This document shows, piece by piece, positions 2,140-32,644 of a DNA stretch of 32,647 nt. A program made the position numbers and the translations under genes. Under the pieces are notes generated by a model. It searched no databases. It was not told the origin of the DNA and saw only the letters and a program-made list of their open reading frames with translations. Location: positions 1-32,647 of the forward strand of contig JAUCBJ010000890.1 in the NCBI GenBank assembly GCA_032718475.1, given 5' to 3'. This stretch comes from Nemertoderma westbladi (Eukaryota > Animalia > Xenacoelomorpha). Positions within the stretch are counted from its first letter, which is position 1. Every line of letters starts with the position of its first letter.

Positions 2140-3650
2140 CAAGAGTGCTGCTGCCTGCAGTAGCGCGTACCGGTAGCCATCTGACACAGTTTAAGAATTT
2201 GCTCTATGTGGTCTCTCGCCGTTTCACGAACTTCGAAGAGATGAGCTTCATAAAGAGCTGAACTGCGTTGGTACAGGAGGAATACCCCCCACGTTGTAAA
2301 GAGAAGAGTCGTGGACATACCGAGCTCGACAAGGTGAACTTGAATCAGTAGGCTGTCCCTATCTAGGTTGAAAACCTCCACTCCGTATAATGCAGAAGGA
2401 ATGATCACAAGTTGGTAGAGGCACATCGCTGACGACAGTGAGACCATTTGCAGGTATACTTTGATGGATAGACTGATGGTGCCAGCAATGGCCTTTCTGT
2501 AGCGATGTTTTAGGTGTCCAGAATTCGAGTTAAATGCAGCATACCAAGGTAGTTGAAACTATAAACAAATTTGATTTGCTTATTGTTATATGTAAGCTTG
2601 TCAGCAACAGCCAATCAGCCACCACGGCGGAATTTCACAGCCTCTGCCTTTGCAATGTTGACAGACAGCGAGTTATTTCTACAGTATGATGACAGTCTAT
2701 TAAGTGCATCCTGTGTTTGCTCGATGGTATCAGTCACTATCACTAGATCGTCAGCATACATGAGCACTAGCACTCCCGTAAAAATCAACGCAGCGGGGTG
2801 ATCAGCGACGAAAAGTGCGAATAAATGAGGGGACATTTTGTCACCCTGAAGGACATCAATTGTCTGGGTAATAGGAGAAGTAACAAGTGAACCAATGACA
2901 ACCAAGATACAAATTTACACAAATAATAGTCCAAAGAGCTTTCAGGAACTTTGTACTGATAACAAGTTTGTGAAGTTTAATTATAAGCTTGACTCAGTTC
3001 ACTTTGTCAAACGCCTTTTCAAAGTCTACAAAGACACAATACTTGTGACCCTTTGGTTCACCCAAAGAATTTGAGATTTGCTGTACAGGATTTTTGTAGC
3101 TTTGATTTTTGACCTTCCTACTATGAACCCAAATTGTTCAGCTGGAAATATCAAATTACGCTCAGCCCACGAGTAGAGACGTGAATCTAGCATGGCTGTG
3201 TATGTTTTTAGAAGAAAAGCTCATTAGAGTGATACCGCGATATGAACCTGGTAGTCTTAGGCTACCCTTCCCATTATATAGGGGAATTAAATAACTAGTT
3301 GACCACTGAGTCGGAATGATAGCGTTGTTGAAACAGAACGACAACAAGGCGACTAGGAAGACATTAAATATTCCATACCCCTGTTTGAGACACTCGTTGG
3401 TTATGCCATCAGGGCCGCCAGCTGCCTTGCCATTGGCTGATTTCGAAATATTGCTGGTTATTTCAGTGGCCGAGATTTCAGCATCCATGTCCTCGACAAC
3501 AATGTCTTCAATGACTGGGAAGCTCGGTATTTTTTCACTCCCAAGCAGACCACCGAAATGCGATTTCCAATCTTCACTCGTAACCTGCTGTATCCGATCT
3601 GTGCTTGGTTTGCATTTGAGTATGACAGGTCCTCAGCAGGAGTTGATGTG
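2140..3650 (-). mobile_element. Decayed non-LTR retrotransposon (LINE) ORF2, reverse transcriptase region
   Basis: Minus-strand RT motifs in the expected order across frameshifts: KAAGGPDGITNECLK, LIPLYNGKG...SYRGITLMS, CVFVDFEKAFDKV (~3001-3040), VLQGDKMSPHLFALFV, LMYADDLVIV, LSVNIAK. Confidence 0.92.
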
Positions 3651-3729
3651 ATGTCAGGAAGCTTGAAATGCACAATGTACAATTAGATAGATAAAGAATA
3701 TATAGTACATCTAGCGTGGCTTGTAAAGC

Positions 3730-4680
3730 CAAGACCATAAAAATATATTTTAGTTTTTGTAAAATAAACCACCAGTTTTTGAGATTTTCTTAATTATGTG
3801 CAGTTTCCAGGAGAGATTGTTGTCAACGGAACTGCCTAAAAATTTGGTTGAGTTTTTGAACGTAATAGGGGAGTTATTTATCCGGATTTGGTGATCTGGG
3901 GGATTAAAACGTTTGTTAGAAATTATAGTAAATTCGGTTTTAGTTATATTTAGAGAAATTTTTTTATCAGACAGCCAATCAGGAGAGTGTTGAGTTCCAA
4001 GTTGACAAAGTTGATTAGTTGGTGTAAGTTAGTATATCAGCTGTGTATAAAGTGGTGTCATCAGCAAAGAGAGTTGTGAAAAGCTGAGTAGCGTTAGGGA
4101 GGTCGTTGATATAAAGAAGGAATAGTATCGGGGATAATGTGGCACCTTGAGGGACGCCGGTGTTGAGGGGATGATAAGAGGAAGTATTATTACCGATGGA
4201 AACGCATTGGGAGCGAGCTGTAAGATAGCTGGAGAATAGTTGAAGGGGAAGGCCGCGAATACCATAGCAAGATAGTGTTTTGAGAAGGATATCGTTGTTA
4301 ATAGTGTCAAATGCTTTTTTTAAATCAATATAAATTACACATGAAAATTTTTGGTCGTCTATGGATTGGTTTAGTTTTCAATGACAGATAACAGAGCATG
4401 GGTGGTGGATGTTTTAGGACGAAAACCATACTGACAGGATGATATGATAGAGAGTTTATGTAGGTATGATAGAAGCTGAGAGTTAATTATCTGTTCGATG
4501 TATCTGTTCAATGGGCAAGAGGGAAATAGGACGATAGTTGTTCAGGGAAGAAGCCGTGAGATATCGATAAAGTGAAAAGGTAACTAAGGATGATAGATAG
4601 AGTTTTCGCGGCCAGAGTGAGTAAGCTGGTTGGAAATGGGACATTGGAGGTAGTGTGAGGGTCTAGCTGTAGTAATTTGA
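3730..4680 (-). mobile_element. Second decayed LINE RT fragment (CR1/L2/Crack-group-like)
   Basis: Manual minus-strand translation gives NNYRPISLLP, QYGFRPKTSTTHAL, IYIDLKKAFDTINNDILL..L..YGIRG, SYLTARSQCV, GVPQG, LFLLYINDL, LFADDT and KFLG..VDNNLSWKLH. Frameshifted, so the ORF track misses it. Confidence 0.9.
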
Positions 4681-6659: not shown

Positions 6660-7939
6660 AATGTTAAAGTCCTTTGTCTGTCAGGAAGGATTCTGAAGCA
6701 CTCAGAAACTGATTAAGTCTCATTACAGATCTATAGACAGGCCGTGATGACATACTCCACAACTCTTCAAGCGATTCATGGGCTCCAGCTAACAATAGTA
6801 GCCCAATAAAAGCCTTGATCAATATAAAATCAACCATTGTCCAAACTTTTGGTATTCGATCTGGGTGACCATCATTCCAATAAGTTATGTCTTCTACAGC
6901 TCGAACGGTTGGTTTCCCGGACAACTATGGAAAGAATTTCGTCATTGATGAAGAGCTCAAAGCTTTCCTTTATTGACTGAACTGTCTTTGCTTCCCCCCT
7001 AACACCAGATTGTTCTTTGATCACATTAGAACTGATTGTTCTCGAACTGTTAGTTTGGTTGGACTGTAAACTCCATTTACGACCACTTTTACAATCTATA
7101 GATATTTCACTCTGGCCACCACTAGTTCCACATCTACTTCTAGTACTATTATCGACCCTACTTCTCTTGTGAGCACGTCAGCTTTCAAAAGTGGAATTCC
7201 CTTCATCGATTTCGGAATCTGTGGCTGGTTCAGTATCATCATCCGATTCTCCCAAAATCAAAGACACCAAATTCTCAACATGTTATAATCCCCATCACTC
7301 ACAGTATCAGCTGCCTCAGTTATCACACCTGCATACACATACAGATACAGATATAGATAGATATATATATATATATCATATATAGATAGATACAGATACA
7401 GATATATCCATATAGTCACTATCGGAAAACGGTTCATCATCACTAAGGAGATCATATAGTGGTTCTACATCTTCAATATCACTATCCATTATGGAACACT
7501 ACACAACTATTGATCTTCACATATAATACTCAACTACAGTAATAACAAAACGGACAGATAGAGAAACATACAGACAGCTAGTGACAGACAGACAGACAGT
7601 GCCAATTTGGAAAATACTACAAATGAATGCATTTGGCTTCTTGGCTCCCCATGCAACTTTAAGGGCTAGTTACTGCTGTACAGGTAATGACTAACAGTTA
7701 CTGGTATTCGATTTTATCAGTGGGGTCATTATTGACCCCAGGTGGTCACAGCGAGTGTTGCTCAGAAAGAGGTTTGAATTTTTATATCAAATAGCTAAAC
7801 AAAACAATTGTATTTCATAGAATTACATGTGCTAGGAAGGTACTGCCAAGTTCAGAACCCCACATACAACTATTGAAGAACAATTAGAGATTTAGTTCAC
7901 TGGGGTTGTTTTCGACCCCAGTGTACATAGGAAGGTTAA
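6660..7939 (-). mobile_element. piggyBac transposon remnant (one terminus plus the N-terminal part of the transposase)
   Basis: TTAA at 7936-7939 followed on the minus strand by CCTTCCTATGTACACTGGGGTCG. Two GGGGT...ACCCC subterminal palindromes (~7720-7740, ~7900-7920). Acidic N-terminus MDSDIEDVEPLYDLLSDDEPFSDSD from the ATG at 7489. Also IKAFIGLLLLAGAH.ESLEELWS...RPVYRSVMRLNQF, typical of PGBD transposases. Truncated; other end not found. Confidence 0.8.
7335..7412. repeat. Compound microsatellite (ACAGAT/AT/AGAT) inside the piggyBac ORF
   Basis: Directly visible simple repeats interrupting the acidic N-terminal coding region. Confidence 0.85.
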
Positions 7940-9924: not shown

Positions 9925-11853
9925 ATATGTCTGTAGTAAATGGGCCCTTCTTAAAAATTACTACAGTTTTCTATGGATGAAGTTCAAACCTACCGAAGTA
10001 CAAAGACAACAGATATCCGCGAAAAGTATCGCGAAAGGTATACAAGTAGAACATATATGATAATCACATATTAACAGGGCATGTTAACATTAACAGGCCA
10101 GGGCAGTTTTTGTTTCGGCACAAACACTTTGAAGGGTCTAAGCGTCTAGGGTCTAGGCGCATATCTGCCTTGCATCCTTGAATGGTAGCTAAATGTGTAT
10201 TGGAGTTTCCTCTGGGGAGTATAGTTCTGGGGGGACCGCACTGGAAATAAGTCGTCAGACTTCGTGTGTAATCCCTGGTCTCACGGCCGACGAAAATTTA
10301 CTTTAGGCCCTACTTTACCTTTCACAGTAAGGACCGTGTGTCACGAAAAGTATACAAGTAGCACATATTTGGTAATCGCATAAAGCATTAAGAAATCAAC
10401 CTGATTTTTATTTTATTCCCTTATGGGTTTTCCGTTTTGCTGAATTCGTATATGACACGTTCGTTTCTGATTGATTGTGGTATTTTAAATATGTCCCATT
10501 GAGTGACGAAAAATGCAAGTAGCTCAGTAATATGACATTGTCTCCAAATTCTATTTCATTTGCTCATTTTCACGAAGCATTTAACAACGGATTATTCCCC
10601 AAAAATAAAACTGAAACGTCTTTTCTATTTACTTCAGTTTATTGTTTTGGTTAGAATGACGCGCCAAAGTAAAACTGACCCTTTCACTAAATAGATACTT
10701 TAACATTTCGGTGAAAATTTAAATTGCCAATAGGGCTTGCGTTAAGTTTTCCCCTGTCTCACAAATACAAAAATATATGCGTGTAGCAAATTGGCCGCTA
10801 CAAATTTTATTTCTGAACTGAAAATAAACATACGGAGCCCATACATGGACATTAAATAGTCTTTTTTTTTGCTAAGTCGTGCGAACGACTTACGATCTCT
10901 AATCTGATACAGTGTAATACAGGGCCAAATCGGCGCTGCCCATGTCTGTCTGTCACGTGCTTCTGTTTTTCTGTCTGTCTGGCTCACACCAATATCCCAG
11001 CTATGACTCGGTAAATTTTTTTGAAATTTGTTATGTATGTAGTAGAGAAAAGGTTTAGAAAGTATAGTTGTAGATTTTGGCGCCCTGCAATTTCATGGGA
11101 TGCCGTTAAGTGGCGCTAAATATCTTATTTCCAAGGCTTAATAACTTATGAAGGACCTTTTTATTAAAAGATTTTAACGATAAAAAAATTAATCATACAT
11201 ACTGTGTATAATTCACGAAGTGGGGCCTTCGCGCTAGTGATACCGACAATACAAAGACACAGGGTGCATTCTAGTTCCTATCTGACAATTTTCAGCTTGA
11301 ATTGATCATAATTGACTGAATAGGTCAAAAAATTCACTTTCCGACATTTCGTCCTCTAGCGGCAGACTAAAGAACTGCAGATTGTCTTGAGTTAGCCATT
11401 ATTGAGTTTCAACTGCAGCAGTATTGTATATTGAATTTAAAAACCCGCTATTGTTTTTTTTATTACTACAGTAGAAATGGCCAATCAAAACATAGTTAGT
11501 TAAGTGGTTCGCATGTCTTACTCTTGAGTCGTTCCAACGAGTTAGTTAAGTCGGTCGAACGACTTTAGTATAAATCTGTATAAGTCGGCCTACCTGAACG
11601 TTTTTCCTTCTGTGTTCTGTGTATGAGAATCCTCGTCCATCGTAAAATAATGTATATTCTTTATTTAATATTCAGAAATAAAAGATAGAAATGATTTTCT
11701 ATGTTTTAGGCCCATTTTATTTTATTTATTTATCAATATTAATATATATAATGATTATATACTTATCCGAACGCCATTTCTTATAATTAGTTTTATTTAT
11801 ATTAATCCATTACTACTTAACAATTGGCAACAAATTTATTTGTTTCGTTAATA
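9925..11853. repeat. ~1.9-kb interspersed repeat, copy 2
   Basis: Direct repeat of 1-1924. The true left end may lie further upstream (~9830), which cannot be compared because copy 1 is cut by the window edge. Confidence 0.9.
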
Positions 11854-11959
11854 TATGTTGTACGAACTCCACTCTTAGGGTCGTCGCCATGATTGGATTG
11901 ATTGGCACTCGAGCGGTGTGCGAGCCTACAGCGCTAATAAAAACCCTCAAATAAGCAGA

Positions 11960-17381: not shown

Positions 17382-17440
17382 ACAGGTCCCGCATCAGAAG
17401 TAGACAATTTTCAGGTCCCGCATCAGAAGTAGACAATTTT
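17382..17440. repeat. 29-bp tandem duplication in the gag 5' region
   Basis: CAGGTCCCGCATCAGAAGTAGACAATTTT x2; the length is not a multiple of 3, so it shifts the frame. Confidence 0.9.
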
Positions 17441-17677
17441 ACGGAGGGATTGTAGACAACTTAAATGTAGATCCACCCATAGTTAGTTTTGTACAAACTG
17501 GAGTGAGCTCACCATCAATACTACTAATGGACACATCCCCCATTATGTTTGCCCCCTCACCCAACAGCAATGCGGAATTGCACCCCCCGTTAGACCCCAG
17601 CCTACATGACGTTGACCGTTATGTACAAAATATCAGGCAACCCAAACCCCCGAACAACGACGACACTCGAGAAATCA

Positions 17678-17766
17678 TTGATTCTTTATTACAAAGAAAT
17701 GATTCTCTATTACAAAGAAATGGTTCTTTATTACAGAGAAATGATTCTCTATTACAAAGAAATGAT
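17678..17766 (+). repeat. 21-bp x4 coding heptad repeat (DSLLQRN)
   Basis: In-frame repeat in ORF 17503-17862, consistent with a coiled-coil expansion. Confidence 0.9.
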
Positions 17767-19238
17767 GACTTAGAGCAACAAATTACCTTAATGCAATATC
17801 ATATCACCCTAACAAATAAGAAAGTAAAGAAAAGAAAAATATATAAGAAAGAAAAATTATAAAACGTGCCTCCGATGTGAGTGGTATTCCTGGTATTCAT
17901 GCCGAGAATACAGTACATCAGAACCACCAAAGCTCATATCTAATCGACCTTTTACTAAATTCTTCAGCAGCTCAAGCCGACCTTACCCGACATATGGCTA
18001 GAAATGAGGCCCGACTGTGCGTCTCTGCAGGTCAAATTCTAAAGTTCGACGGTGACGAGCTAAAATGGTTACCCTTTGTGGAGTTCTGTAAGGATAGCAT
18101 TCTAGACTCACCATTGAGCGAGCATGAGAAGCTTAGATATTTGATTAGTTGTCTGGAAGGACCCCCTAAACAGATGGCCGCGAATTATATGGGCCATGTG
18201 GATGGCTTAAATACTGTTTGGGATACTCTAAAGGAGCGGTATGGCGATGAAGAAAGCCTGGCACGCAATATGTATGATCGACTAATCTCTAAAAATAGAT
18301 CTGCCCAAAGTGAGATAGTAGAGTTTAGAGATGAAGTAGAGGAAATTTGCCGCCAACTTGATTGGCTAGGACAAAAACAAGTGTACGATACATCCATGAC
18401 AGTACAATTCGTTTCCAGTGCACTCCCAAAGGGCTCCATTGGAACCAGATGGGACCGATACTCTTAGAATTACAAACTTAAACACGGATGTTTCCCGGAT
18501 ATGGACTCGTTTAGAGGTTTCCTGAAAGCTGAAGCGTCCACATATCTCATAACAATAAACCGGGAAAGAAGCACACATTCCAACACAAAAACATCAGATA
18601 AAATAATGACTAAGAAACGGTATGCTTATGTCACTAGCTATGAGGAACGCACTTCGCAATGCACTGATTCAGAGATGGAAGGACACGACAGTGTATATCT
18701 TAGTGATACGAGCTCAAAGGGACAGAGAAAACATAGATGTAAAAATGCAAAGATGCATACTGTAAGCACCCCCATAATTCAAAGGTGTCTCCTTTGTAAA
18801 ACCACCACACATTCCCTTGTAAAATGTCCTGTTTTCCTGAAAAAACCACCTAAGGAAAGACGACAGACAGTAAGAGCTTTATTGGCGTGCTCCCTGTGCC
18901 TTAGACTAGAACACATAAGACGTAAATGTCACTTAAAGAACATTAAAGCATGCCCCGTGTGTCAAGGCCCTCACCACGCTTTGTTACACTTAGATCAGGC
19001 TCCAAAGGGAGAAGTAGACCAACACATGCGTACATTTCACTGATCACGAGACAGACTCGTCCGATAAAGGGCCAGATAAATTCTACCCTGGAGAGTTTAC
19101 AGATGACGACGAATGCTGTAACCATGTTAGTCGTATGAGTCCTTCACCTATGAGGAACCCGCATCGGAAGATTGTTTCAAAGTTGAGAACAATCCCAATA
19201 CCTGGTCATCCCAGGATGCAGGAGTTAAAGAGTTTCCG

Positions 19239-20566
19239 GTGCTTCAAGTCAGACTACACGCGGGAAGCAGTAGCGTAGTGGTAAATGCATTGATGGATAC
19301 CGGAATTACGGGAACCTTCATAGACGCAGACTTAGCCGATTCCTTGTTCACCAGGGAACAGGGCCACAACATGAAATTAACATTATCTGGGATAATGAAA
19401 CGTTGGCAATCCACAATTGAGACCAAGTATTATAAAGTATCACTGTCCACCCCGCAAGATACCAGTGGCCAGGACAGGGTCTCTAACATCAAGATGGTTG
19501 TCATCCGGAATTTTACCAAAAGTCAGGCCAAGGCCTACGACTGGGATGATTGACGCCCTTGTACGTAATCATAACATTCCCCGTTTCACCCCAGACTACC
19601 CAGGCGAGCAGATGTTGATAGGCCAAAATGTACCTGAGGCTTTAGAAATTCTGGAGAAACGACCCAGACATCCAGAACCAATGTCAGCCTACGCCTGTAG
19701 GATGAGAGTGGGATGGTTCTGTACTGGGCCTTCCCGGAAAACTCTATTAGAATGGAAAGGACCGACAAATACAGACACCGACACATAATTTAGTGGCCCA
19801 CCTCTGAAATGAGATCATAGAGACTGAAGAGGACATATTGACTACCCCTGATCAAACTGACAGTGATAATGACGCACCCCTATCCTCAGACCAAGACTGT
19901 TTCCTTACTGGGTACAGTGAACCCGACAATATGTCCCCTATGACTGACCGAAAGTTGCATACCACCCCATTGGAATCATGTAACATATTAAATACAACAC
20001 CCGACTTGCGACTACATCGGGCGGCTGATGACCATAGGGATGAATTTCCACCTCCAGTCATAAATAGTATCAAACGGGATATTTACATAGACGACAACCC
20101 GAAACCAGCCCCGACAGTAAAGGAAACCATAGACATTGCTCAAGGGACAGTAAACTGCCTGAAACTTGGAGGATTTCGCCTAACGAAATTCATAAGCAAT
20201 TCACGTAAGTTTTTAAAGGCCATACCCCTGTCGAGCGTGTCGATACCGAACTAGACTTAAATAAGGACGGCCTACCGGAGACTAAGCCATTAAGTCTTTG
20301 TTGGTTTATAAAAGCTGACATCATGGTATTTAAAGTGAAGTTAAGAAAGGGTGATACTCAAACCAAATGCATTCACCTAGACGTACTCAGTGCCTATTTC
20401 GACCCCCTAGTATTCAGCAGCCCAGTTATATTGCGGGCTTGAGACTCGTTCCACATATATGGAAGGAGAATGATAGTAGAAACACGCGTCAGCGCGGATG
20501 GCCTGGTAAGATCAGTGGATCTCGTAGTGCTGAGGGAAAAGGCAAGGCCACCTCTGCCTGCTAGAA
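19239..20566 (+). pseudogene. BEL/Pao pol remnant: aspartic protease, partial RT, integrase C-terminal tail
   Basis: VNALMDTGITGTFI (protease), MLIGQ...MRVGW, IKRDIYIDD and LKLGGFRLTKFISNS (RT), LSLCW...SAYFDPL, then an abrupt jump to IVETRVSADGLVRSVDL...LCLLE (DUF5641-like tail). The RT N-terminal half, RNase H and the integrase core are missing. Confidence 0.88.
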
Positions 20567-22058
20567 ATGGCATGCAAAGAATCTGGCAACTATGGCAAGC
20601 AAGAAGTCAAGCTAACAGACTTGGCATATTTTTATTGTACTAGTCAGATATGTATAGTAGAGTTGACCGTACGTCCTCTGGCCACATTGCGTTTCAAGAG
20701 TGCGGTTGGAACTTTAAGGAAACCAATTGCGAGACGTATTCCAGAGTCTATGGCTTGGAACGTTTTAGTGCGCTGATGAGTGTTTGATAGCGCCACCACA
20801 GCGTTTTCCCAGCCTTGACCAGCTTATCAACGCCGTGCGAGACATCAACAGTTTGTTAAAGCGGAGGCTTACATCAACACACGGCCAGACGCAGCTTTAT
20901 TGCCGTAACCTGTAATGAACATTTTCTTGGACAAATCAGTTTATAAACTCGGTTCAGCCATATATCGAGATTTGACAGATGATTTCCCTATCATCCATGA
21001 CATACCATATCCCTTTGTCAACACCCAAACCATCCTTCCTTGGGCGCAACCCCGCGGCTTCTTCCAGGTTATGTATCGACGCAACGCTAAAGATATGTAT
21101 AGTAGAGTTGACCGTACGTCCTCTGGCCACATTGCGTTTCAAGAGTGCGGTTGGAACTTTAAGGAAACCAATCACGAGACGTATTCCAGAGTCTATGGTG
21201 ACTCATATTTGCCTTATTACTTTCAAGGACCGCTCACCCCCCCAGGCGCTGTATATAGCTTTATGAGCATCCCCTTGCGCCCCTCATTAGCGATATACCT
21301 CATTCGAGAACCAAGCGTTATCAGGATGGCTTGCGGACGTCTGTAGCCGCACGTTGAGAACGCACCCGTTGTTGTTGGGAACCCAACTCGCCAAACTCGA
21401 TGAATTTGGTAAATTCCTGAACTTCAAATGCTTTTGGCGTTTCTTAACCCCCTTCGCCAATATTGACAGTCAGTCAGTTCGCCAATACTGACAGACAGAC
21501 AGTCAGTTACATCGCTCCGCAGCGGATGAGGTAGCCAGCGGTGGCTTTGCCATATTCCGGGACGTATGTAATACCAATCTCCATCAATCGGTGATCGAGA
21601 GGCCCATTATTAAACCTGGTTTCTCGGTTGGACAAATACTAACTGAAGTTATGGACACCCCCGACCAAACGGAGGAATCAATCCATCTAGAAGCGACCTC
21701 AGCAGCTGCCCCTCTCGTGCTCACCCGGTTTGGTGTCATTACCCAAACTGCCCCCTCCGGACCAGTGCAAGCTGCTGTGCGGAAGCACTTAGCTGTTCCT
21801 CCAGGATTAGAGATCCGTCGACCGGCTGTCGACTCGGGCGCAACGAGACCGTTCGAGTTCCTGTCCTTGCCCGGCACATCCACCGGGACATACATACTTC
21901 CGATTTCACCGACACCAGACACGGTATATATACACCCGGATCCCAATGAGACGCTTTCAAGCGACAACCTGACGTTACCCGCGCCCCAAACGCCTACAAA
22001 GAAGATGAAACGACTCTTTATGCGAAATACCCCTAAACACCCCAAGAGAAAGCGATAA
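20567..22058 (+). pseudogene. Unidentified extra coding region downstream of pol (env position)
   Basis: Several sense-strand ORF pieces (20567-20776, 20915-21346, 21591-22058) in sequence with higher GC than the flanks. The last is Pro/Thr-rich and ends in a basic tail (KKMKR...KHPKRKR). No family recognised. Confidence 0.45.
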
Positions 22059-25749: not shown

Positions 25750-27298
25750 ACCCTGGAACCTAAAAAAATTCGAAATTTTCGAATTTTTTGTATTATTTTT
25801 CATATTTTTGAAAAAAATGTCAAAAATTTGGGATTTTTTCCTAAAATACAAAGAATGATGATGAGTTAACTATGCTATTAGAGGTTCCAGTTAAGCGCCA
25901 CACCGCCATGGATCACGTGTCAAAATTTCAAGAAATTTCATCGAGCCGTTCTCGAGATAATGGGGCATTTGTAACGAAAATAACATGAAAAATTGAAGTA
26001 GGAGAAAAATGCATTCAAAGTTTTCAAACCTTCCCGCCAATTTTTATAAATGGGAGAATTTTCATGCATACCATTATTGTCAAATTTTGAAAGGACATTT
26101 TTTCTAACAAAAATTAAAACTTTCGCTATGGGCTTTTCTTGTTCCGTGATTTCACTTCCGATGTTAGTTTTCACGATTGACGGATTCTAGTCTGTCTGTC
26201 CGTCTGTCTGTCTTTTGGTTTGTCCGTCAAAATATAAAAAAGCATACAACACTCAAATAAAATTTTCTTATGGGGTTTTCCTGGTCTGTGACTCCATTTC
26301 CAAAGTCAGTTTTCACGATTGACGGATTCTAATATGTCTGTCCGTCCATTCTGTCTGTCTTTTGGTCCGTCCGTCATAATTTAAAAAAGCACACAACAAC
26401 TAAATAAAATTTTGTTATGGGGTTATTCTGGTCTGTGATTTCATTTCCAATGTCAGTTTTCACTATGGATGGATTCTAGTATGTCTGTCCGGTCCGTCCA
26501 TTCTGTCTGTCTTTTGGTGTGTCCGTCAAATTTAAAAAAGCACACAACACCTAAATAAAATTTTGCTATGGGGTTTTCCCGGTCTGTGATGTCATTTCCT
26601 ATGTCTGTTTTCACTATTAATGGATTCTAGTATGTCTCTCCGTCAATTCTGTCTGTCATTTGGTCTGTCCTTGACGGACAGACCAAATGACAGACAGACA
26701 GGCGGACAGACAGGACGAATAATCCGTAAATCCTAGAAACTGATACCAGAAACGAAATCACAGACCAGAAAAACCCCATAGCAAAATTTTTAGTTAGGTC
26801 TGGTGTATTTTTTATATTTTGACAGACAGACTAAAAAGACCGACAGACGGACAGATAGGACTAGACTCCATAAATTGTAGAAACTGATACCAGAAACGAT
26901 ATTACAGACCAGAAAAACCCAATAGCAATATCTTTAGTTAGGTCTGGTGTATTTTTTTATATTTTGACAGACAGACTAAAAAGACAGACAGACAGACAGA
27001 CGGACAGATAGGACTAGACTCAATAAATTTTAGAAACTGATACCATAAATGAATCTCAGAACAGGAAAACCCCATAGCCAAAAGTTTTAGCTCAATGTAG
27101 TGAGATTTTTTACACTGTATTTTCACAAACAGACAAAAAACAGACTAACCGACAAACAGACAGAGTTTCAAGCGGTTTGGTCTCATGATATGGTTTTAAA
27201 GTGTCAATATCCATAATCTACGGAAAATTGTGTTCTTAAACAACTAAAAAAAAAAAATCTCAAAAATTTTATTTTTTTGAAAATTTTAAGGGTTCCAT
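25750..27298. mobile_element. Non-autonomous foldback element with inverted arrays of ~140-150-bp GTCT/GTCC-rich units
   Basis: About 4 direct units (marker GTTTTCAC at 26167, 26309, 26456, 26607), then about 3 inverted units, with a hairpin centre at 26671-26675. Weak terminal inverted similarity: CTGGAACCTAAAAAAATTCGAAA versus TTTGAAAATTTTAAGGGTTCCAT. Confidence 0.7.
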
Positions 27299-27299
27299 C

Positions 27300-27931
27300 T
27301 ACGGTGGCTGAATGTGGCCAATTTAATTAATTTTAAAATGGGAAATATAAAAGGAAATTAATGAAATATAATTCCTTAAAACAGGAATTAATCAAATATA
27401 ATTCAACCCAAAACAGGAATTAATCAAATATAATTCAACCCAAAACAGGAATTAATCAAATATAATTCAACCCAAAACAGGAATTAATCAAATATAATTC
27501 AACCTAAAACAGGAATTAATCAAATATAATTCAACCCAAAACAGGAATTAATCAAATATAATTCAACCCAAAACAGGAATTAATCAAATATAATTCAACC
27601 CAAAACAGGAATTAATCAAATATAATTCAACCCAAAACAGGAATTAATCAAATATAATTCACCCCAAAACAGGAATTAATCAAATATAATTCAATCATTT
27701 TGGAGGGAAATTTAAAATATTGTCTCAGTGCAGTGCAGCAAATTGTCATTCCCTTTTCAGTCTATCAGTGCAGTACTGCAGTACCGGTTGCCCGTAGCTC
27801 TGTAAGCTTAGTTCTGTGGTTAGTTGTTAATCATTTAATCACTACTGAATACCGATCTACAGCCAACCCGGCAGCTTTCTTTTACCAATCTTCAGAAAGA
27901 TCGGTAATACCGTAGGATTAGTTAGTTCAGT
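27300..27931 (+). repeat. Left TIR (~632 bp)
   Basis: Reverse complement of 31964-32644. Essentially identical in the outer ~500 bp apart from array copy number, then diverging with indels over the inner ~130 bp. Confidence 0.95.
27378..27694 (+). repeat. 32-bp tandem array in the left TIR (10 copies)
   Basis: Unit AAAACAGGAATTAATCAAATATAATTCAACCC; ACAGG recurs every 32 bp from 27381 to 27669. No spacers. Confidence 0.97.
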
Positions 27932-28206
27932 AGTTTTAAAGGCTTATGGAACTATGAACTGTAGCATCGGCACTGATAGAGATGCTTGGCTCAGCGCAAT
28001 TTCTAAATTCCGGCATCTGGTGAAGGATTTCTTACTACCAGTGTAGCTTTTGCACAAGCCGCAATAAAACTTTTAAATAGGCTGGGCTGCTGGGTAGCAG
28101 GTGGTAGTCCTACGACGCCTACCGGTATAGTACTGTAGTAGCAGTAGATGTAGGGTGTTAGGGTATTCTATTGATATTGGCCCAATTGATTTAATTACGA
28201 ATTATA

Positions 28207-29379
28207 ATGCCCCAAGATTTTGAACTAGAATCACTTTTGGATCACTACTATTGGTTGGGGTACACACACAGCGAGATTTCAACATTGATGGATAGAAATG
28301 AAGGAATTCAAATATCAGTACGAACAATACGAAGACGTTTAAATTCTACTGAGCATCGTAAGGTTTTTGACCCAAGACAATTTGATGCGGTAGTTACGGC
28401 TTTAGAATTAGAGTCAATCAATAGGAAAACGGCTGGATATAGGCAATTACAGTATATTTTAATGGACGAGTACAAGCTTTTTGCGCCAAGGAAATTAATA
28501 GCTGCAGTAATAAGTATCATTGATTCAGTTGGTAGACAGTGCAGAATTGGGTCCAGATTAATTCGTAGAACCTATTTTTCCCAGGGCCCAAATTTTTTGC
28601 TTCATGTCGACGGATGGGATAAGCTAAAGCCCTTTGGCTTAACTGTACACGGCGCTATAGATGGTTTCAGTAGGAAGCTAATGTGGTTGAAAGCCAGCAG
28701 AACAAATAATGATCCATTTGTTACGGCACAATACTACTTAGACATGGTTGATGAAATTGGTGGCGTTCCTCACATTGTTAGATGCGATAGAGGTACTGAA
28801 AATGTGAATATTGAAACAATTCATCGATACCTACGACTTTGTGAAGAAAACTCTTTCATGACTACAACCAATTCAAATGTACCATTCATTTATGGTAAAA
28901 GTACGCGTAATCAACGCATAGAATCGTTCTGGTCCAAATTCCCAGTTTTAGGTATGTCAGAATGGATTTCTCATTTTACAGAATTGGAGCTAAGTGGAGA
29001 GGTAGACCTATCATTAACTCTGAATAAAGAAATCATTCGATATGTTTACTTAGATTTTCTCCAAGAAGTTCTGGACGGAATTCGAGTTCGCTGGAACAGT
29101 CATCGTCTTCGTCGCAGCGGATTAGCGGCCCCACCGGGAAAACCGGACCTACTTTATCTTCAAGAGCCAAACTTCGTACACAACGTTATACAAAGCGATA
29201 AGGAATTGATGAGACCTTTGGCGATTGCTAAACCAAAATGCAGTTATTTGATAGGAAATCTATTTAAAGACTACATTAATCTCGCTGGCCATGCAATAAA
29301 CCTTCCTAATGATTGCCATTCATTGCAAGACTGCCGTAGAACTATGTTGTATTTACTTCATGATGGGTTTGAACATTGA
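28207..29379 (+). CDS. DDE transposase, integrase-core/IS3-like fold (IS3EU-type), 390 aa, intronless and intact
   Basis: N-terminal HTH-like ISVRTIRRRL, then GYRQL and RLIRRTYFSQGPN. Candidate catalytic residues D135 (HVDGWDK), D194 (VRCDRGTEN) and E239 (NQRIESFW). Also HGAIDGFSR, WNSHRLR and PPGKPDLLY. Confidence 0.93.
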   Translation: MPQDFELESLLDHYYWLGYTHSEISTLMDRNEGIQISVRTIRRRLNSTEHRKVFDPRQFDAVVTALELESINRKTAGYRQLQYILMDEYKLFAPRKLIAAVISIIDSVGRQCRIGSRLIRRTYFSQGPNFLLHVDGWDKLKPFGLTVHGAIDGFSRKLMWLKASRTNNDPFVTAQYYLDMVDEIGGVPHIVRCDRGTENVNIETIHRYLRLCEENSFMTTTNSNVPFIYGKSTRNQRIESFWSKFPVLGMSEWISHFTELELSGEVDLSLTLNKEIIRYVYLDFLQEVLDGIRVRWNSHRLRRSGLAAPPGKPDLLYLQEPNFVHNVIQSDKELMRPLAIAKPKCSYLIGNLFKDYINLAGHAINLPNDCHSLQDCRRTMLYLLHDGFEH

Positions 29380-29708
29380 ACAGCTGTAGCCTGAAGGTTA
29401 TAATTAACTATTATAACCAGATTATCTAAGATTCCTGTTATGTTATGGAACCGCCCTCAAATATACAAATATCAATGATAAGTTCATATTATTTGTTATA
29501 TACAATCATTCAAACATGTTAACTATAGATTATACCAAATGAAATGAAATGAAAGCTGCATTATTATTTATTGCATGGTCTTATCATTACTTATTTACAA
29601 AAGTATCAACAATTAGCTAAATGTAAAAACTTGACTAAAACGTAAACCTAAAACGTATTAAAAAGTATTATAGCTTGAGTTTTTACTTGAGTTTTAAAAC
29701 TTGATTTT

Positions 29709-31879
29709 TTACTGCGTTGTAAATGTTGTCACCATAGATAAAGTGTGAGACATTCTATTTTTAAATAGTTCATAACTTGTAAGTATGGGTAAACTAATAG
29801 TATTTGAACAGGTATTTGCATGCGGTAGTCCAACAGTAAACGGGTTATCCTGTTCCTCTGGGTGAAGGAAAGTAACTGATGGCGTGGGATCGAATCCCAG
29901 CGGTGGGATCTCGTCAGCTCCTGTTACAAACGTGAGGACATCACTGAGTCCAATTATATCAGCTGATTCGGGAATCGTTATCTTTTCTAAATAAAAAAAT
30001 ATATAGTTAATTATAATAAATACGCCCTCAATATATATGTAATAATATAATAATAATAATATAATTATTATTATTATTATATTATATTGTATATTATATA
30101 TCAAAAGCAAACAGCACAAATTTGATTTATTTTAATATTTATTAATATATTTAATATTTATTCTATTATTAATTATTATATAATGATAACATTAGGGATG
30201 TCCCGGAATCGATATTTTGATTCCGGCCGGAACCGGAACCGGAATTCAACATGCCGGAATATTCCGGCCGGAACCGGAATTTTCTATAATTAGTGAAATA
30301 CACTAAATGACCCAAGAAACTTTATACATTTTTTGTGAAACAAATGTTTTTTTTAAATTTCTACAGCTAAGTTTGTTAATAATTATGTAAGATATCATAT
30401 GAGCAGCCTTGAAGTAAGTATTGTTAATTACACCTGAAAGTTTAAAATTACAACACATTAGTATACAATGGCCGATTTTGTAATACTATAATTTATTACA
30501 AATATAGTATATTTATTTATTTGATCATGGATTTAACAACCCTAAATAACATACTATTGTAATCCAGATTCAGTAACTTAGATGTTTCTCCTCCGATAAA
30601 GATTGGTAGCCCACTTATTTGGCGCATTGCTAAACGCATAAATTCTCTTTGAGGTCCCCCGGCGTCGATTCCTTCTTCACCTGCAAACTTTACGTCCAAA
30701 GTATACCATGGATTGAATTTCGGACGGGCAAAAGCGCGGAAACCACCATCTAGTACATCATCCCTTGTAACATTTACAATGTTTTTATATTCAGCAGATT
30801 CAATACGGTTCTCAAGTCGTTCCAGAATGTTTGTCAAACTATCGCTACAACAGAATAAATTAATGAAATTACATTAATGTTAATAAAACCAAATTAAATA
30901 AATAAATCGAAAACTGGGCAAGAATATCGAAGCACTATAAATAAACATCGCAATGCAAATAACTAAACTTATTATAAAGTAATCCTTACCTTAATGGTAT
31001 GTCATTCATTTGCGGAGTTGGTAAAGACGATGGTGTCTCTGGGTTCCAATCTACAGTGCCATTTGGAATAGGATAGGCAGTATTATCATCAGTACCAAGT
31101 GACTCGTTTGGAGGGATCTCCGAACTAATAGAGATAACATCAATATCAGACGAGACAACATTTTCGTTTATGTGTATATCTAAAGCTGTGTCCTCTTTAG
31201 ACATAGCAGTACCCAATATACATAAATGTGGAATTCCAACCACGCATTTATCTTTGATATAATCCATGATAGTATGGTATGTTTCGATAGATTCATCGCA
31301 AGCATCATGTATGGTAAATTCGTAATCAGCGCGTTTATTTGGTTTGCCATTCTTCTTTAATATAGGACTTACCCCTCCAGCATCACAAAATAGTTTATCA
31401 AGAACTTCACCTTTCACATTATCCAACCCTTCCTCAACGTTGGTGTATAATTTGACTTTATTTGATGCGCCAAGAGGCTTTTTAAGTAAAACTTTGCTTC
31501 GGCCACGTCCAGCGTAATCGAATTTAATCGTGAAGTTAACAACTCTGCTGTTCTCGCGTGGTCGACCACGGCCTACATGACGACGTGTAGCAGCCGCTCG
31601 AGATGCTATAGCCCTTCGACTATTACTATTCCCAAATGTAACTGATGCTGATTGTCTTCGTTGAGTATCAGTGTGAGTACCGTCATTACCAGTTTCAGGT
31701 CTACCATCTGCAGAAATCATCCTATTGCTGCCAGTGGGAGTACCGGCACTGGTACGTGATGGAGTCCATGACGGTGACCCAATACGACCACTTATCTCGT
31801 TTAATCTATTGTTAATTCGATGGCGCAGTTCAGCCAGTTCTGATCGAGATAAGTCAGGTGTATTGTCCTCGTCATCCAT
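29709..31879 (-). CDS. HECT-domain E3 ubiquitin ligase (G2E3-like), predicted exons 31879-30990, 30844-30555 and 29986-29709, ~485 aa, internally shortened HECT
   Basis: Exon 2 has the HECT start VNVTRDDVLDGG...LDVKFAGEEGIDAGGPQREFM. Exon 3 has the C-lobe VLTFVTGADEIPPLGF...LPHANTCSNTISLP (Cys codon 29808-29810) and Phe at -4 (FTTQ*). Splice sites AG|GTAAGG...TTGTAG| (phase 2) and A|GTATGT...TTTAG| (phase 1) join the exons in frame (890+290+278 = 1458 nt). Confidence 0.82.
30194..30282. mobile_element. Single hAT-like MITE terminus within HECT intron 2
   Basis: TAGGGATGTCCCGG followed by clustered CCGGAA/TTCCGG subterminal repeats, a GC-rich island in a very AT-rich intron. No matching opposite end found. 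Confidence 0.6.
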
Positions 31880-31963
31880 TTTCAATAGACTATGCCTGCC
31901 TATAGGCCTACTTCATATGTCTTACCTGCAGTACAGTACAGTTCTATATTATACAACTACGGA

Positions 31964-32644
31964 ACTGAACTAACTAATCTTACGGAATTACCGGTCTTTC
32001 TGAAGATTGGTAAGGTAAAGCTGCCGGGTTGGCCGTAGTCAGGTCGTATCGGTCTGTCGGTAGTCAGTAATGATTAAAAGATTAACAACTAACCACAGAA
32101 CTAAGTTTACAGAGCTACGGGCAACCGGTACTGCAGTACTGCACTGATAGACTGAAAAGGGAATGACAATTTGCTGCACTGCACTGAGACAATATTTTAA
32201 ATTTCCCTCCAAAATGATTGAATTATATTTGATTAATTCCTGTTTTGGGGTGAATTATATTTGATTAATTCCTGTTTTGGGTTGAATTATATTTGATTAA
32301 TTCCTGTTTTGGGTTGAATTATATTTGATTAATTCCTGTTTTGGGTTGAATTATATTTGATTAATTCCTGTTTTGGGTTGAATTATATTTGATTAATTCC
32401 TGTTTTAGGTTGAATTATATTTGATTAATTCCTGTTTTGGGTTGAATTATATTTGATTAATTCCTGTTTTGGGTTGAATTATATTTGATTAATTCCTGTT
32501 TTGGGTTGAATTATATTTGATTAATTCCTGTTTTGGGTTGAATTATATTTGATTAATTCCTGTTTTAAGGAATTATATTTCATTAATTTCCTTTTATATT
32601 TCCCATTTTAAAATTAATTAAATTGGCCACATTCAGCCACCGTA
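31964..32644 (-). repeat. Right TIR (~681 bp) including an 11-copy 32-bp array (~32218-32566)
   Basis: CCTGT recurs every 32 bp from 32239 to 32559; inverted copy of the left TIR. Confidence 0.95.

Follow-up and report, generated by a model that had tools for sequence, protein, structure and literature searches.

A HECT-type ubiquitin ligase gene as a recurrent partner of the transposase in IS3EU/GingerRoot-type transposons, with an apparently broken copy in Nemertoderma westbladi

The analysis concerned positions 1 to 32,647 of contig JAUCBJ010000890.1 (assembly GCA_032718475.1, Nemertoderma westbladi), a stretch of 32,647 nucleotides referred to below as the window, which carries a DNA transposon of the IS3EU/GingerRoot type at 27300..32644 (5345 bp). 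In the reading that we favour, with a probability of roughly 0.55, this is a young element of a family in which a HECT ubiquitin ligase gene recurs beside the transposase gene, the ligase probably attaches ubiquitin in trans to a host protein that restrains the element, and the window's own ligase gene has suffered a deletion beside the end of a miniature inverted-repeat transposable element (MITE). An earlier note on this DNA, made from its letters alone, had described two convergent genes between terminal inverted repeats (TIRs), and this arrangement was confirmed by open reading frame and exon mapping.

Metagenome contigs were scanned for relatives of the window transposase, which yielded at least 555 confirmed relatives; the best 80 were kept as loci (L numbers), and HECT profiles were run over all 7826 six-frame pieces of these loci. 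HECT matches were obtained in 29 of the 80, in every case downstream of the transposase, 0.6-3.5 kb from its end, and encoded on the opposite strand, while the same six-frame search returned a HECT domain at no other position in any of the 80 loci, and reversed-peptide controls gave no HECT match. A profile from whose construction these loci had been excluded matched all 29 (E<=0.01), and Pfam matched 24 of them. Where at least 2 kb of downstream sequence was available (32 loci), 22 loci carried HECT, four a protein kinase and six neither, one of these six (L068) containing a long interspersed nuclear element (LINE); after clustering at 70% transposase identity, HECT was present in 19 and the kinase in four of 27 clusters. 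The HECT-linked transposases are 31-43% identical to that of the window. The 9394-bp L075 is complete, having TACGG ends and a 6-bp target-site duplication (TSD), and encloses the HECT gene; L038 has both ends and HECT and no TSD, and in L035 and L069 inverted repeats enclose both genes. Another of the six loci with neither HECT nor kinase holds a complete transposase-only element of 2885 bp with a perfect 6-bp TSD (L017:296-3180). Judged from these sequences, the ligase is almost certainly a standing component of the element family, as the earlier note had proposed in place of a host gene; of the outcomes that it had named as counting against this proposal, a lack of HECT linkage among related transposases is contradicted by the 29 loci, and a one-off capture by the HECT gene lying between TIRs and TSD in L075.

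The window element has TACGG..CCGTA ends, the same termini as given for fungal elements in a passage of PMC12730594. Its left TIR (27300..27934, + strand, 635 bp) contains a 32-bp unit repeated 10 times at 27378-27694, and its right TIR (31956..32644, - strand, 689 bp) 11 such units, in accordance with the TIRs of more than 600 bp and the TAC..GTA ends noted earlier. Aligned over 635 columns, the two arms gave 623 matches and 12 mismatches, the first at 27806, 506 bases inward, and because of this near-identity the insertion is taken to be young. The element is flanked by TCCATC on the left (six bases) and by GTT on the right, the only three bases before the window ends; these three are inconsistent with a TSD of 6 bp but would be compatible with one of 8 bp.

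The transposase is encoded by an intact single-exon gene at 28207..29379 (+ strand, 390 amino acids) with a weak N-terminal helix-turn-helix signal. It matched Pfam rva_4 (E 5e-29), its residues D135, D194 and E239 were invariant in 36 of 36 aligned rows, and the integrase-like DDD/E signature was found with no zinc-finger match (HHCC absent), which agrees with the intact 390-residue DDE transposase and the IS3EU identity claimed before. Its relatives numbered 577 at E<=0.001 among 5349 candidates, and named ones come from brachiopod, mollusc, echinoderm, fish and insect genomes; seven pattern matches in viral contigs included no relative. The TAYGG-type end pattern is present in 20 of the 80 related loci. 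Passages of PMC10045372 define IS3EU by its TA..TA termini and by TSDs that mostly measure 6 bp, and place it in a single lineage with GingerRoot, the autonomous elements are stated to encode two proteins in passages of PMC8232023 (citing Kojima 2019) and PMC10853768, and PMC11934779 calls the group, in the part consulted, little studied. With TA..TA termini (TAYGG..CCRTA), TIRs, an integrase-like transposase and two proteins, the window element has the features of IS3EU/GingerRoot. It shares TA..TA ends, a DDE enzyme without HHCC and two proteins with the elements described in parts of PMC10045372, PMC6839031 and PMC8232023, whose 6-bp TSD recurs in the relatives L075 and L017, with no TSD in L038. 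It differs in its TIRs of 635-689 bp with tandem units, compared with 100-150 bp in the corresponding passage on GingerRoot, and in that the second protein, unnamed in those passages, is a HECT ligase.

The partner of the transposase is modular and not fixed, because the trees of the two proteins agree only loosely and a kinase replaces HECT in one clade. The tree comparison excluded L009 and L036 for their shortness and L070 for its truncation and lack of the Cys; transposase and C-lobe distances correlated with Mantel values of 0.52 (27 rows) and 0.45 (23 rows), and 3 of 24 splits were shared over 109 C-lobe columns. The comparison had been suggested in the earlier note, and it yielded loose agreement and no demonstration of co-evolution. 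Transposases of L013 and L014 are 78% identical and their HECTs 32%, and for L052 and L064 the values are 74% and 30%. In L031, L054, L062 and L071, a Pkinase-family kinase occupies the ligase slot, downstream on the - strand; these labels come from Pfam, which covered 150 of the 174 frames downstream on the opposite strand, the other frames having been scanned with HECT and N-domain profiles only. Under midpoint rooting, a branch (92/91, not starred) separates the four kinase elements from the rest and places them within the HECT elements. Two of them (L031, L071) keep the N-terminal domain of the HECT versions, a module of ~120 amino acids common to nine HECT loci, two kinase loci and ten fetched proteins (e.g. 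L035:6644-7048). Eleven members of this domain matched no Pfam family beyond four single weak matches, and searches gave no match in the PDB and only unnamed eukaryote clusters (mollusc, cnidarian) in the Atlas. A UBX domain is added in the HECT versions of L004 and L035 and was found in 4 of 25 relatives. As a separate observation, the transposases of L009 and L013 have a synonymous distance (dS) of 1.1 and the HECTs one of 0.24 (53 codons), a discrepancy indicative of recombination between the arms of elements.

A possible course of action would begin with the transposase binding the 32-bp TIR repeats and mobilizing the element. The ligase gene would be transcribed from the right TIR and then spliced, as a contig described below suggests; an intact ligase would take ubiquitin from a host ubiquitin-conjugating enzyme (E2) onto its Cys, the N-terminal domain would select the target and, in UBX-bearing versions, p97 would then extract the tagged protein. 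Acting in trans, the ligase would tag a host protein that otherwise silences or blocks the element, and the window copy would still be moved by its own transposase while drawing on the ligase of intact copies. That the target is a host protein restraining the element is our best guess, held at even odds. We favour it over the transposase because the enzyme can be swapped for another, evolves faster than the transposase and is lacking in a complete TSD-flanked element, and because fungal IS3EU elements carry TET/JBP genes for which a passage of PMC12730594 proposes escape from methylation silencing. The transposase-only L017 and the swapping of the catalytic module, with a kinase in one clade, point to a role that is dispensable and host-directed.

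Alternatively, the ligase could act on its own transposase, either ubiquitinating the enzyme that stays on the DNA after strand transfer, which p97 would then strip via UBX so that repair completes, or capping transposase levels. The action of ClpX on MuA is an analogy for such removal. This would suit the almost constant occurrence of a second enzyme gene, seen in 26 of the 32 loci that extend at least 2 kb downstream, the UBX-bearing versions, the N-domain identity, which tracks transposase identity (Mantel 0.68-0.80), and L021, in which an N-domain like that of L035 is joined to a HECT of a different clade. However, C-lobes track the transposases about equally (0.67-0.71), so that shared descent explains the correlation, transposases 74-78% identical are paired with HECTs only 30-32% identical, L017 has the transposase alone within its perfect TSD, and a term look-up in the GingerRoot paper, covering part of its text, returned no second conserved gene (PMC6839031). 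We consider an action on the transposase unlikely and continue with a host target as the preferred reading.

In the window, the HECT gene lies on the - strand. Exon 1 (30990..31879, 296 codons) encodes a low-complexity N-terminus and a domain at residues ~110-230 and is followed by intron 1 (30845..30989, 145 bp, GT..AG), exon 2 with the start of the N-lobe (30555..30844), intron 2 (30434..30554, 121 bp, GT..AG) and a 56-bp remnant of exon 3 (30378..30433) that is cut at 30378. The last exon (29709..29986, stop at 29709-29711), with an acceptor placed provisionally from the sequence, encodes a C-lobe (PF00632, E 3e-9) with the catalytic Cys in PHANTC and a Phe at -4 and ends in FTTQ-stop. Between the two, at 30193..30380 (+ strand, 188 bp), lies the end of a MITE with the terminus TAGGGATGT, which we take to be hAT/Ac-like; it is called high-copy from the many loose-ended contigs at this site, and its other end is missing from the element. 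The exon 3 remnant adjoins it at 30378, with three bases overlapping. Compared with the intact relatives P0127 and P0129, ~160-170 amino acids of the N-lobe are missing, which correspond to the helical middle of the N-lobe in the P0127 model. This helical middle is the E2-binding part of a HECT N-lobe, and the window copy thus lacks the complete N-lobe of a HECT E3. Read-through from the remnant meets a stop at codon 437; a direct splice from exon 2 into the last exon would, judged by phase, preserve the frame (derived by hand) and give a 485-residue product lacking the same stretch, which is probably what the earlier note had seen. The spliced HECT gene with PHANTC and the -4 Phe that it reported was recovered, including GT..AG borders at introns 1 and 2, but the open, functional frame was not, exon 3 being cut; the ligase of the window copy is very probably dead. 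A Pfam scan revealed no PHD/RING-like zinc fingers in exon 1, its domain had no homologs among 37 candidates, and its single-sequence fold reached a predicted local distance difference test (pLDDT) score of 35, too low for use; because the domain resembles the shared N-terminal domain no more than weakly, presence of the latter in this copy is suggested at most.

Contigs from four sequencing runs (X1-X4; three samples, three studies) were aligned to positions 30175-32200; X1 and X2 stem from the same sample, and X1 is possibly the source run of the assembly. An X4 contig of 2595 bases, identical to the window over 1296 bases, bridges both introns at their GT..AG borders, and its 30-base loose end at 30378, translated by hand, reads HRGPCPRFFS, matching the family pattern HGGPxPxFFS after exon 3. 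Contigs of X1, X2 and X3 continue for 174 bases beyond 30378. Because the X4 contig is spliced and contigs, among them some from two other studies, run past 30378, an undeleted, spliced form of the ligase exists in the organism. We infer that X4 is RNA-derived; its record reads only 'DNA?'. The junction at 30378 could also be an assembly artefact, the true locus having an intact ligase, which would concern the state of the window copy only. Contigs of X1, X2 and X3 pass unbroken through 30378 into the 174 other bases and no listed contig has the junction, as an artefact would predict, but Logan contigs lose rare variants, the 3-base overlap fits a true microhomology deletion, and a k-mer assembler would presumably not join over three bases. 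An artefact is improbable on these grounds, and the junction very probably marks a real deletion.

Three further observations were made on these contigs. At ~31635-31691, those of X3 break, one with a different base, which suggests a variant or an internally deleted copy in that sample. By length estimate only, the 3' end of the spliced X4 contig may reach the last codons of the transposase (29240-29709), a convergent overlap that could yield double-stranded RNA. Contigs of all four runs share the TIR at 31934-32096 and diverge to other sequence at 31934; these apparently represent a sister or non-autonomous family with identical ends.

Across the family, 28 of the 29 linked HECTs retain the catalytic Cys (26 of 26 aligned C-lobes and two short ones), L070 being the one that has lost it. 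In alignment A2 the Cys occupies 43 of 48 rows (3 gaps) and the -4 Phe 41 of 48 (5 gaps), and both residues persist across elements only 20-30% identical. Ratios of nonsynonymous to synonymous substitution (dN/dS, NG86), with pairs of saturated dS left out, were 0.056, 0.071, 0.157 and 0.204 for the four closest pairs among the HECTs, the corresponding transposase pairs giving 0.10-0.16 and both genes having equal dS in L023/L035; a ratio of about 1, which would have spoken against the earlier note, was not observed (0.06-0.20). P0127 is modelled with both HECT lobes complete (pLDDT >90 across most of 121-480), Foldseek matched the model to Smurf2 and NEDD4 (E 6e-14), and the family profile aligns along the whole NEDD4 HECT (E 5e-25). 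E2 use may differ from that of NEDD4, because the E2-binding part of the P0127 model is helical and poorly aligned. As far as can be judged from conservation, the ligase is probably active as a catalyst in intact copies. A non-catalytic scaffold or decoy, for instance one titrating E2 enzymes or ubiquitin in the manner of inactive vertebrate G2E3, would accord with the altered E2-binding region and with the part of PMC3673628 that describes the G2E3 HECT as non-functional and its class as very divergent; the retained Cys and -4 Phe and a C-lobe dN/dS far below 1 make it very unlikely.

Capture of a host HECT gene as a single event, followed by its decay as a Pack-type passenger, might be read from the broken ligase of the window and from the gene fragments taken up by 22 of 77 GingerRoot elements in a passage of PMC6839031, but it is already largely refuted by the identical placement and direction of the gene in 29 of 80 loci with transposases so distant from the window's, by the complete elements, by the dN/dS values indicating purifying selection and by host G2E3 PHD/RING fingers in 0 of 25 scanned relatives, and is hardly credible.

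Several points weigh against the favoured reading. The E2-binding part of the P0127 model aligns poorly to NEDD4, and the nearest named family, vertebrate G2E3, has a HECT described as non-functional (PMC3673628, in part). Six of the 32 loci with sufficient downstream sequence have neither HECT nor kinase, and the upstream control is thin (58 kb compared with 178 kb downstream; five loci with at least 2 kb upstream). The window transposase sits on a long branch (2.65) of the transposase tree, a Pfam scan found no UBX in the N-terminal domain of the window ligase, and window exon 1 did not match the shared N-domain profile (hhalign probability 2-6%). A TSD of the window copy is not seen, the window ending three bases past the element. 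The junction at 30378 occurs in none of the listed contig pieces, those of the possible source run included, and the break could be an assembly error; the spliced X4 contig, given its 'DNA?' record, could be a processed DNA copy.

Accessory proteins are carried by other DNA transposons: Ginger1, Dada and Zisupton have OTU/Ulp1 domains of the ubiquitin/SUMO system, and Harbinger encodes a second protein. Like these, the window element has an accessory protein under selection beside its transposase; unlike them, mostly tag-removing proteases or DNA-binding partners, its ligase would add tags. TET-bearing IS3EU elements of rust fungi, as described in part of PMC12730594, resemble the window element in their termini and in an enzyme gene (alpha-kinase) opposite the transposase, whereas the window family has HECT, or a Pkinase-family kinase in four relatives, in this slot and no TET/JBP; a term search of one supplement of that paper returned no HECT link. 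The family-level pairing of transposase and HECT in IS3EU was not found in print. Literature searches gave no such link; Repbase entries, Kojima 2019 and bioRxiv supplements were beyond their reach and may already note the domain. Term look-ups within the accessible text of PMC6839031, PMC6431247, 10.1101/2021.09.26.461848, PMC9547173, PMC11353290 and PMC4455052 gave no link either, and one in the accessible text of PMC5718144 gave no matches.

In molluscs (Argopecten, Haliotis, Patella) and fish (Clarias, Lampris, Xyrauchen), proteins closely related to the ligase bear the annotation 'G2/M phase-specific E3 ubiquitin-protein ligase-like'. By database names only, the window ligase resembles the highly divergent class IV HECTs (G2E3, GL-Metazoa, GL-Bikonta) treated in a passage of PMC3673628, a paper in which the term 'transpos' had no matches; its family differs from G2E3 in the absence of PHD/RING fingers from all 25 scanned members and in the kept Cys. 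We tentatively suggest that divergent animal 'G2E3-like' (GL-Metazoa) HECTs may be the second protein of IS3EU elements and not host genes, combining an N-terminal targeting domain with a swappable writer (HECT or kinase) that disables host silencing or strips the transposase via p97, and that the HECT of host G2E3 may be a domesticated copy. If so, many mollusc and fish 'G2E3-like' gene models would be reassigned to transposons, changing HECT family counts. The exchange of HECT and kinase behind a common N-terminal domain points to a target that either mark inactivates. No paper was found that states the identity of the second protein of animal IS3EU elements, here a Cys-intact HECT ligase under selection, and this identity opens a direct test of how a transposon might use the host ubiquitin system; the window copy would be a poor reagent for it because its ligase is broken. 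Four gene models (P0140, P0151, P0149 and P0239) fuse HECT to CARD-caspase, SIX1, THAP or a retroviral-type integrase; these are probably neighbouring genes merged by annotation, or else real fusions after insertion.

Outside the element, the remaining ~27 kb of the window contain nothing but short pieces of retrotransposons and piggyBac (74 scanned frames, six with a Pfam match, longest 227 amino acids), with LINE, piggyBac and BEL/Pao-type fragments, so that the earlier description of this part as decayed was accurate. Decayed pieces of a reverse transcriptase, a piggyBac-type transposase and BEL/Pao-type gag and protease lie at 2618-4377, 6667-6924 and 17400-22000. Positions 1-1930 and 9925-11860 form a direct repeat of 2 kb, 94-100% identical and spaced by ~9.9 kb, and directly left of the element, at 26061-27112, units of ~145 bp are arrayed in both orientations.

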